A stretch of 63,541 bases of DNA, filler included, from Reclinomonas americana ATCC 50394 (Eukaryota): the NCBI GenBank assembly GCA_048213135.1. It is 13 parts of 13 records of this genome, joined end to end, with 100 filler letters (N's around TTAATTAATTAA, not from the genome) between each part and the next. Parts side by side here need not be neighbours in the genome. Positions count along the whole stretch, not along the records: positions 61,006 to 62,069 come from AFZH01021179.1; positions 62,170 to 63,541 come from AFZH01021180.1; 11 more parts are not named here. One strand, written 5' to 3'. Under the pieces are notes generated by a model. That model was given only the letters and a program-made list of their open reading frames with translations, had not been told where the DNA came from and searched no databases. The translations under genes and the position numbers were made by a program. Shown one piece after another: positions 61,006 to 63,541 of the stretch. Positions within the stretch are counted from its first letter, which is position 1; each line of letters begins with the position of its first letter.

Positions 61006-63541
61006 AGAGAACTCGTCGCCCACGTGCAGGAAGCGTGGAATCGTCAAACTACAATACCCACCAGACACGCATGAGTGCAATCCAGCATTCACACGCACAG
61101 TGCAGTCATCAGCAGCACACACACCGCATCGAAAAGTCCATGCGCACAGTCAATAGCAGCTCAGCTGCGCCACTGAACATGGTCTCGTTGTTGGCAAACA
61201 CGAAAATGCGGTACCTACGCCACACCACAGTAAGCACCTCTGACACTGCTGCACAAATGAATCAAAGTGGTGCACGTCAAGGAGGACACGAAACTTGGTC
61301 AGCGAGTCCGGCGTCTCGAAGCGGACAGTCACGTGGCCAGTCTCGTCGGTGGTCGCGCGTGGGATGAAGGCTGCAATCGGCGAGAAATTGTTGCGGACAA
61401 CAACCTTCTCAGGCTCAGCGGCACCACCAGCAGCGGCAAAGCAGTCATCGTCATCTGCACACTCTTCGTCATCAGCCTCCGAAATCCGATTCCTTCGTCG
61501 CTCCGACCGGCCCCGGAGAGAAGCACTTCTAAGCGATGCAGCTGGCATGCCTCCTAACATGTCAACAACCCCGAAGGATTCTTCACAACATTCACATTCT
61601 GTCGATCGAAACCGTAAGTTACAGTCAGTAATAAGAATGCGCCGCTATTGTTACCGTCTTCCATATACATATCATCAAGCACGGCCGCCGTGAAAACCTG
61701 CTGAACGGCAATGTAGTCGCCGTAGAACACTCCCAAGTCGCCGAGTGAGCGTTCCAAATTCTTGTCATTGTCCAACAGATCTCGGCCATTGTGCTGCAGT
61801 CCTTCCATGTCGGAAGCCCATTCCTGTCACAACGAATCAACAATCAGCAAACATTGATAATGTATGCCAGAGCTGCATGACCGACACAACTTTCACTTTG
61901 TCCACCAGCGACTGCAACGTGTCGGACAGTCGAACCTCCACCGACTTGGACTCTCCACTCTGCGAACACGACCGTTACTTGCGCAGACCGAATTGGGCAC
62001 AATCGCATACACAGAGAAACAACGCTAACCACAGACGCCGAGACATGCACACCAAGGAAATGATCCACTNNNNNNNNNNNNNNNNNNNNNNNNNNNNNNN
62101 NNNNNNNNNNNNNTTAATTAATTAANNNNNNNNNNNNNNNNNNNNNNNNNNNNNNNNNNNNNNNNNNNNCAGCGACGCCTGCCATCACAACACACTCAGG
62201 TGAGAGATACTGCGTCCACTCCTCATCACCCTTCCTCCCCTCGTCACACACCTGCAGTTGCACTTGCACCGGAACCGGATAGTTCACGTGGTCCACCACA
62301 AACGTGTGCCGCGACTCTCCCGCTCGATCCGATGTCGCCTCGGTGACAGGAATCGCAGGCTCCGCCACCGTCACGTACGGCGTGGTGAACAAGTACTCTC
62401 TCAGTTGCTCACGCGCCTCAGCCGACACTTTGTTGCTGTTCAGTGGCGACGCCTGTGCGCACGACAGCGTCTTCCGGTACGTCACAAGCTGGCCCACCAC
62501 CGGGTCGTCTGCAGCATCGTATTTTACCACCCCATATAACAACCATGGGACGAGTAAGCATGCTACGAATACGAACACATCTCTCTCCCTCTCACTCTCT
62601 CTCTCTCTCTCTTTCTAACTCTTTCACCTGTCTGGTACTTGGACACAGTCACCGACGGCACCTCGTCACCGCTGACATACATGTCGCGCTTCTCAATGGT
62701 CGGTGTCACCGTAAAGTCTGTCACACGCACAGTCAGTGCGGTCGGTCGCACCATCTACTTCCTCCGCCATCGCATCACAAACACCACAAACGAACCAGGC
62801 TTGCGGAACGCCTTGACAGTGATCGACACTCCCTCGAGCACCAGCACACACCGACGCGAGTGATTCACCTTGAACTCGATCCGCGCAGACTCGCCTTGCG
62901 ACTCGTCCCACTTTTTTCGGTCGACAGCAGAGCACACAGAGTGAGCGCTGAAATCATCATCACCACACTATCATAACATTCACACACGCACACTCTCAGG
63001 CAGCGTGAACTGCAGATCAAACGACCACCCAGTCTCGTCAATCGTCATCCGGTGGTCCGTCTGGTGATTCTCATACGAGAATGTCGCAGCCACCGACGGT
63101 GCTTCTCCGCCAACAGATTCTGCATGACTGCCTTTGTAAGCACAGGCACATGAAAAACAACAACGTAACAAAAAACCTTCAAGTTCATGACCATCGCTGC
63201 TCAACTCGACGGGCTCCGCAGCGCCCTCAAAAGGACAATAATCGTCGTCATAACAGTCGGGAGAATAGACGGGAACAGCAGGAGTGCGATTGCCCTTCAG
63301 AGCACCAGAAAAGTACTCGCGACTGGGGAACACCAAATGTCCGTCCTTGTCTTCCACTCGCAGCTGGCCATGCACAGTCACAACCTCACCGGCCTTGTAC
63401 AACGACCTGCAATCACATCCATCAATTCAGCAAAACAACATTCTCTTCCCCACCCTCACACTGCCTACTCACCGATCACTGTTGGCCACTCCAAGCAGCC
63501 GCCGTTTCTCGCGATACAGTTGATGAGCTCCATGATACTCT
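61006..63541 (-). CDS. Bacterial-type alpha-2-macroglobulin with ubiquitin-like domain at the bait region (partial at both ends, internal gap)
   Basis: MG2: SDR|SLYKAGEVVTVHGQLR, IDETGWSFDLQFTLP, VKAFRKP|DFTV. MG3-like: YVSGDEV..SKYQT|DDPVVG. Post-bait: VRNNFSPIAAFIPRATTDETGHVTVRFETPDSLTK|YRIFVFA and IPRFLHVGD. Confidence 0.85.

Follow-up and report, generated by a model that had tools for sequence, protein, structure and literature searches.

A bacterial-type alpha-2-macroglobulin gene fragment of Reclinomonas americana with a candidate ubiquitin-like module beside its bait region

Alpha-2-macroglobulins (A2Ms) are bait-and-trap protease inhibitors, and the content of the bait decides which proteases trigger the trap. 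In complement C3, C4 and C5, the macroglobulin (MG) domain that hosts the bait is split in two by an anaphylatoxin (ANA) domain, a disulphide-rich helical bundle that lies by the activating cleavage site and is freed by cleavage. Bacterial Type II A2Ms lack the CxEQ thioester. Here we describe what appears to be part of a single eukaryotic A2M gene, rich in introns and bacterial in kind, found in a 63,541-nt stretch of DNA (hereafter the window) that consists of 13 joined parts of the Reclinomonas americana ATCC 50394 assembly GCA_048213135.1, and in which three short exons just upstream of the A2M-domain exon may encode a ubiquitin-like (UBL) module. The nearest studied relative is MagD of Pseudomonas aeruginosa, a Type II A2M; according to the excerpted text of its description, its bait ANRSERG (residues 847-853) was swapped for a TEV site, and cutting there trapped the protease (PMC5764988).

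The likeness to bacterial A2Ms (Escherichia coli YfaS, P. aeruginosa MagD, cyanobacterial and Aminicenantes proteins) is clearest in the domain that follows the bait, which is 31-33% identical to single bacterial proteins (blastp, E down to 1.9e-11) and carries the motifs TTD.xG, PDSLT.[YW]R and PRF..GD. The putative N-terminal MG domains are collinear as well, and the presumed bait lies just ahead of the conserved motif, as the excerpt on MagD has it (PMC5764988). The Reclinomonas gene differs from these bacterial genes in having spliceosomal introns, 11 of which are modelled here, and in a bait-side segment that has no match among them, where the ubiquitin-like stretch is found together with an acidic linker that contains cysteines.

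The fragment lies on the 1,064-base contig AFZH01021179.1 (positions 61006-62069), and the neighbouring contig AFZH01021180.1 covers positions 62170-63541 (see Table 1 for the coordinates of exons, introns and artificial linkers). The window is eukaryotic, with a GC content of ~0.57, and is rich in short GT-AG introns. A scripted spliced model of the 1,064-base contig yielded six exons on the minus strand that encode 230 residues and are free of stops, the five introns being GT-AG throughout (splice flanks cgcag/AGTGG...GTGAAA/gttgtg and gacag/GAATGG...GAAGACG/gtaaca, slashes marking exon borders). The first three of these exons had been placed by an initial annotation of this DNA, and they were recovered with the same borders and with phases that fit. 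The in-frame run that it had described through the linker into VRNNF...TDETG...PDSLT was likewise found to be stop-free, by way of a 56-base phase-1 intron and an exon at 61598-61295. We revised the end of this fourth exon to 61295 (donor GTTTCG) and the start of the fifth to 61214, which restored the family motif LT-x-[YW]-R-I in the profile alignment. Codon log-likelihoods, for which 1,101 codons from confident exons of the same window served as training set, were in favour of the proposed frame for exon 2 (+11.1 vs -3.0 and -5.1) and for exon 3 (+12.8 vs -8.0 and -44.8), as they were for exons 5 and 6 and for the conserved portion of exon 4. Introns scored around zero or negative in most frames, the exception being intron 5 with +12.1 in one frame. 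The antisense frames, scanned against Pfam, gave no family match.

The predicted product of exons 4-6 is a genuine A2M domain. As a reference we used a profile of bacterial YfaS/MagD-like A2Ms, for which the E. coli YfaS segment aligned to exon 4 led to 67 bacterial loci, 63 usable segments and finally 15 non-redundant ones (<80% identity). Against this profile the spliced model reached 57.9 bits (E 4.8e-20, residues 140-229), the best of 2000 shuffles attaining 7.4 bits, and hhalign of the model with the A2M family gave 97.4% (E 1.3e-11); the initial assignment of VRNNF...PDSLT to the alpha-2-macroglobulins is thus well borne out. YfaS is 38% identical to the conserved part of exon 4, and among single proteins the top scores went to a cyanobacterial A2M (49.7 bits) and to proteins of the YfaS type (~45 bits). 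The open frame of the second part of exon 4 was picked up by the bacterial profile with 35 bits (E 3.6e-10) among the 1848 open frames of the window. The match of exon 4 alone to the Pfam A2M family PF00207 was weak (12.3 bits, E 0.15; cut-off 21) because the domain is spread over three exons. A pairwise comparison with E. coli YfhM was non-significant (E 0.21 for the best alignment in the correct place), a word-index search with exon 4 found no homologue at E <= 10, a metagenome scan with it found no relative, and a PDB sequence search with it gave no match. None of the other frames among these 1848 is A2M-like, so the thioester region would lie outside the window.

On shuffle controls, the predicted product of exons 1-3 resembles ubiquitin beyond chance. 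A Smith-Waterman alignment with ubiquitin scored 67, a value reached by none of 20000 shuffles (mean 24, standard deviation 4.4; Gumbel p ~2e-6), and it is collinear over ubiquitin residues 4-62, with a helix that is apparently 4 residues longer in the module. We then compared the model with a profile of 73 distinct ubiquitins, gathered from environmental virus contigs by a degenerate motif: its first 75 residues obtained 11.9 bits (0 of 5000 shuffles, maximum 7.4) and its first 100 residues 10.9 bits (0 of 5000, maximum 9.7). With hhalign, the match to ubiquitin was 64.5% (E 6.3e-5), with 33% identity across 54 columns. Most of this signal is held by exons 1-2 (score 46, reached by 1 of 20000 shuffles); exon 2 alone scores 40 (15 of 20000), and the frame that contains it came out on top when all 1531 six-frame open frames of the window were compared with ubiquitin, the best unrelated frame scoring 36. 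For exon 3 alone, a language-model look-up returned the ubiquitin, Rad60-SLD, Ubiquitin_2 and CLU_N clusters at 0.79-0.84, scores below 0.9 being taken as leads only. The two halves of the module were thus caught by different methods, exons 1-2 by sequence and exon 3 by the language model, and in the correct order. Both the identity to ubiquitin and the nearest clusters liken the module to described UBL domains (PF00240, Rad60-SLD PF11976, Ubiquitin_2 PF14560), from which it differs by its longer helix, by having no Gly-Gly right after the fold and no Pfam match on single exons, and by being embedded in a macroglobulin. We infer that it would adopt a beta-grasp fold.

Several observations weigh against this assignment. 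The ubiquitin likeness, which the initial annotation had seen by eye, stands statistically (shuffles, hhalign, window control). At the level of single exons, Pfam finds no ubiquitin-family match on exon 2 or exon 3, exon 3 alone is weakly ubiquitin-like (430 of 20000 shuffles attain its Smith-Waterman score of 33, p ~0.02), and AlphaFold2, run on exon 3 without an alignment, gave one long helix with a pLDDT of 91. This helix is given little weight, since the matching C-terminal half of true ubiquitin came out of AlphaFold2 as coil only (pLDDT 61), and folding of a half-domain therefore cannot recover a beta-grasp. A two-chain fold of the exon 2 frame (30 residues, including 7 of intron read-through) with exon 3 (48 residues) fell short of the mark of 0.34, with a score of 0.19. 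The second half of exon 3 is also similar to the units of helical repeats, and a word-index search with this exon among longer proteins gave no homologue at E <= 10. As a whole, the protein and metagenome searches with exons 3 and 4 yielded no relative, a lack that means little as the lineage is poorly sampled. The ubiquitin profile is narrow because it was built from near-identical sequences; a PF00240 search of large virus records, 2 of 5 of them covered, returned canonical ubiquitin only. Moreover, the shuffle p-values overstate the case, since the candidate had been singled out by eye in a very large scan, and the whole case is made on one 1,064-base contig with a gap on either side.

Other searches with exon 3 returned matches that we set aside. 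An exhaustive search of 1.84 billion representatives gave three at E <= 0.001, a 3944-residue coiled-coil repeat, a 1255-residue TPR-like repeat and a 592-residue repeat protein, which were dismissed as repeat artefacts. The sole metagenome match (L194 5001-5042) is ascribed to chance: it covers 14 residues and runs antisense to a bacterial gene of 644 residues, on a contig of 214 kb. A PDB search found only weak matches (E 0.028-0.76), to designed double-psi barrel proteins, via an LGV..GDY.V motif.

The most serious rival to a ubiquitin-like module is ordinary macroglobulin sequence, in which exons 1-3 would encode the usual end of an MG domain and the helical linker or bait-region domain that all A2M/C3 relatives share ahead of the bait, and the likeness to ubiquitin in its order of hairpin, helix and strands would be a coincidence. 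In eukaryotic A2M and C3 the region before the bait contains a helix along with a short conserved motif, and the helical fold, the p-value of exon 3 and the blank Pfam results on single exons, all given above, agree with such an origin. Also on this side, the ..VVDEMI.. strand, with which the first half of the bait-hosting domain closes in bacterial A2Ms, finds its best local match, a non-significant one, in FTAAVLDDMYM at the end of exon 3 (61655-61690). FTAAVLDDMYM stands 73 residues from VRNNF, near the 63 residues found in YfaS. If this match is real, the module would be inserted inside the first half-domain and not after it. However, the bacterial profile that is so clear on the next 90 residues (E 4.8e-20) is blank across these 139. 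The specific proposal that in exons 1-3 we see nothing but the normal first half of the MG domain hosting the bait was rejected on a comparison with bacterial A2Ms: a dedicated profile of that half gave -0.9 bits, a value reached by 846 of 5000 shuffles, and hhalign to the ordinary segment gave 0.7% over 10 columns. Eukaryotic A2M, TEP and C3 may be closer in this segment. On balance we regard ordinary macroglobulin sequence as a rather unlikely source of these exons.

Between the putative ubiquitin-like module and the A2M domain lies the linker, which is of low complexity, is open in frame, contains MLGG, LRGR and RSERRRNR, and has the composition E10 A10 D7 R7 S6 G6 C5, with five cysteines and a net charge of -9. 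The initial annotation had stated that in A2Ms the bait comes directly ahead of the VRxxF motif, and this agrees with MagD as far as the excerpted text goes (PMC5764988), its ANRSERG standing just ahead of the conserved motif and pairing with the last linker residues in the profile alignment. The linker would serve as the bait, i.e., as the protease-sensitive trigger. Its synonymous codon use is atypical, with a score of -24.5 over 62 codons (61411-61596), which is a further point against the model as drawn: it prefers A/T-ending codons, the GC content at third codon positions (GC3) being 0.42 vs 0.64-0.79 in the adjoining exons. Its +1 frame looks more like coding sequence, with a GC3 of 0.69 that probably comes from a richness in GNN codons. 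Six alternative in-frame acceptors lie within the linker (61580, 61553, 61550, 61541, 61463 and 61454), and together with the atypical codons they imply that MLGG and LRGR could be intronic. Each of these acceptors keeps exon 3 in frame with the A2M exon, so that the fusion is robust to the choice of acceptor, whereas the content of the linker is not.

The ubiquitin-like exons would be spliced onto the A2M exon, as we infer. In a rival view they are real but foreign to the A2M messenger, their union being an artefact of gene model or assembly: they might form a separate small gene within an A2M intron, belong to an alternative or retained-intron product with its end at the 61554-61556 stop, or lie on a contig that is misplaced or chimeric. 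The exon 3 frame is indeed open for 34 codons further, up to that stop, but a tail read through in this way would run into the open A2M frame, which starts at 61644. The atypical codons of the linker and the later acceptors at 61463 and 61454 could speak for an artefact, yet no choice of acceptor parts exon 3 from the A2M exon. The contig is short and flanked by artificial linkers; against a chimeric or misplaced origin, the pieces share one strand, their phases match, the intron is of typical size, its 56 bases are non-coding in all frames (codon scores -11.7, -10.6 and -6.4), and the upstream contig is collinear with the A2M family. An artefact of this sort is clearly unlikely in our view.

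Ubiquitin-specific proteases generally need a Gly-Gly tail immediately after the fold. No such tail stands at the end of the module, as had been noted from the start: the first Gly-Gly follows 30 residues past the equivalent of ubiquitin's last strand, which bars the module from the class of modifiers and not from that of integral UBL domains. The initial annotation had nevertheless proposed an integrated decoy, luring ubiquitin- or UBL-directed proteases that would cut after the nearby Gly-Gly and then be trapped. The ubiquitin-like segment does adjoin a bait-like linker that contains MLGG, but at this distance from the fold the key feature of a decoy is absent, and the part of the linker that bears MLGG may be intronic. 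This proposal is speculation, and we consider it highly improbable. In its wider form, where a deep-branching microbial eukaryote would have fused a ubiquitin-family domain into the trigger of a bacterial-type trap, to act either as a decoy for the ubiquitin/UBL-directed proteases of invaders or as a built-in tag by which the sprung trap is passed to ubiquitin receptors (proteasome, p97, autophagy), the idea is still very unlikely.

We instead propose, with about an even chance of being right, that the gene encodes a new variant of A2M, in which the bait is flanked by a ubiquitin-like module. The closest profile matches of the gene, YfaS/MagD-like and cyanobacterial, point to a bacterial-kind A2M, in which the three short exons would encode a module of ~70 residues derived from the ubiquitin family, followed by the cysteine-containing acidic/basic linker of ~65 residues that would end where MagD has its bait. 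The module would then part the bait-hosting MG domain into its two halves, at the site that ANA takes in C3, C4 and C5; the two are likened by position only, the module here being ubiquitin-like and N-terminal to the presumed cut. An attacking protease would cut the disordered linker and the trap would be sprung as in other A2Ms, with the module as a folded accessory to the bait region that would act in the native state as spacer or plug, or else become exposed on cleavage as a handle. The module itself would not be a cleavable ubiquitin substrate. All roles given here to module and linker are proposals read from sequence. The initial annotation knew of no described A2M with this architecture, and our literature search for an A2M with a ubiquitin-like domain at the bait region found none among titles and the opening parts of abstracts.

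The gaps that had been reported at 60906 and 62070 do exist and are artificial 100-base linkers, so that any feature that crosses one hangs on the contig order chosen by the scaffolder. Beyond the second of these, the spliced model of the upstream contig (299 residues) obtained 13.0 bits with the bacterial profile, a score that none of 1000 shuffles reached (best 6.0). Its two matches, to profile positions 84-104 and 175-220, are collinear; Pfam found no MG match on single exons. The collinear matches indicate that order and orientation of the contigs are sensible for one gene, and we read the upstream exons as presumably belonging to the same A2M gene as 61006-62069. A (GA)n-rich microsatellite (62585-62625, minus strand) lies within a 119-base intron of these upstream exons. 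On the next contig downstream, at ~60690-60725 (minus strand), a short frame ends and an apparent new gene starts with MAAASAS..., which indicates that the rest of the A2M gene is missing rather than adjacent; the frames near 60690-60725 have no Pfam family match.

Table 1. Modelled exons and introns of the A2M gene fragment and artificial linkers of the window
Feature	Position	Strand	Description
Seven exons of the upstream contig (62170-63540)	63540-63473, 63406-63177, 63119-62992, 62910-62796, 62717-62628, 62508-62252, 62178-62170	-	Predicted N-terminal macroglobulin (MG) domains
Artificial linker	62070-62169		Masks the start of the candidate UBL module and, from the macroglobulin domains, ~290 profile positions
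Exon 1 (partial; truncated by the linker that starts at 62070)	62053-62069	-	5 residues, WIISL; aligned to the end of ubiquitin strand 1; donor GTGTGC at 62052
Intron 1	61960-62052	-	93 bases, GT...AG; codon score ~0 or negative in all frames
Exon 2	61891-61959	-	23 codons, phase 0 at both ends; would correspond to ubiquitin strand 2 and helix (..VEV..SDT..)
Intron 2	61824-61890	-	67 bases, GT...AG
Exon 3	61655-61823	-	56 codons + 1 base; candidate C-terminal half of the ubiquitin-like module, then FTAAVLDDMYMED
Intron 3	61599-61654	-	56 bases, GTAACA...CGACAG, phase 1; junction joining the ubiquitin-like exons to the A2M exon
Exon 4, first part	61411-61598	-	Acidic/basic linker of ~65 residues, putative bait-region equivalent
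Exon 4, second part	61295-61410	-	Start of the A2M domain, EKVVVRNNF...TDETG...PDSLTK
Intron 4	61215-61294	-	80 bases, GTTTCG...GCGTAG
Exon 5	61125-61214	-	Middle of the A2M domain, begins YRIFVFANNE
Intron 5	61049-61124	-	76 bases, GT...AG
Exon 6 (partial; LTIPRFLHVGDEFS)	61006-61048	-	Enters the linker at 61005; PRF..GD aligned to the bacterial A2M profile
Artificial linker	60906-61005		Masks the remainder of the A2M gene and, if present, its thioester region
Artificial linkers between contigs, first six of 12	1739-1838, 7735-7834, 15739-15838, 27646-27745, 29054-29153, 31841-31940		Identical, 100 bases each (44 N + TTAATTAATTAA + 44 N)
Artificial linkers between contigs, last six of 12	37027-37126, 49346-49445, 55289-55388, 56776-56875, 60906-61005, 62070-62169		As above

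Elsewhere in the window, three long open frames on the plus strand (3430-5079, 10633-11475 and 24574-25497) match the Pfam WD40 family at E 1e-26 to 1e-30 and are predicted to encode beta-propellers of this type. The closest relatives of the 550-residue WD40 frame among 5.8 billion proteins are generic WD40 proteins of 26-31% identity, from which we conclude that the lineage is poorly sampled. On the minus strand, the frame at 12536-13678 matches Pfam HATPase_c (E 2.2e-12), and the one at 20589-21500 matches the DEAD/DEAH helicase family (E 9.5e-7) together with AAA_22 (E 1.5e-5).

The value of the A2M locus at present is that of a lead, on evidence that is thin. The anaphylatoxins of complement illustrate that a small domain at the bait site can gain a function of its own. 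If the proposed architecture is true, it would represent a second, independent capture of a domain at the trigger, this time by an A2M of bacterial type in a eukaryote that is poorly sampled, and it would hint at a tie between protease trapping and the ubiquitin system. Should the reading of the module as a tag be true, it would be an intracellular counterpart of the receptor-mediated clearance of A2Ms.

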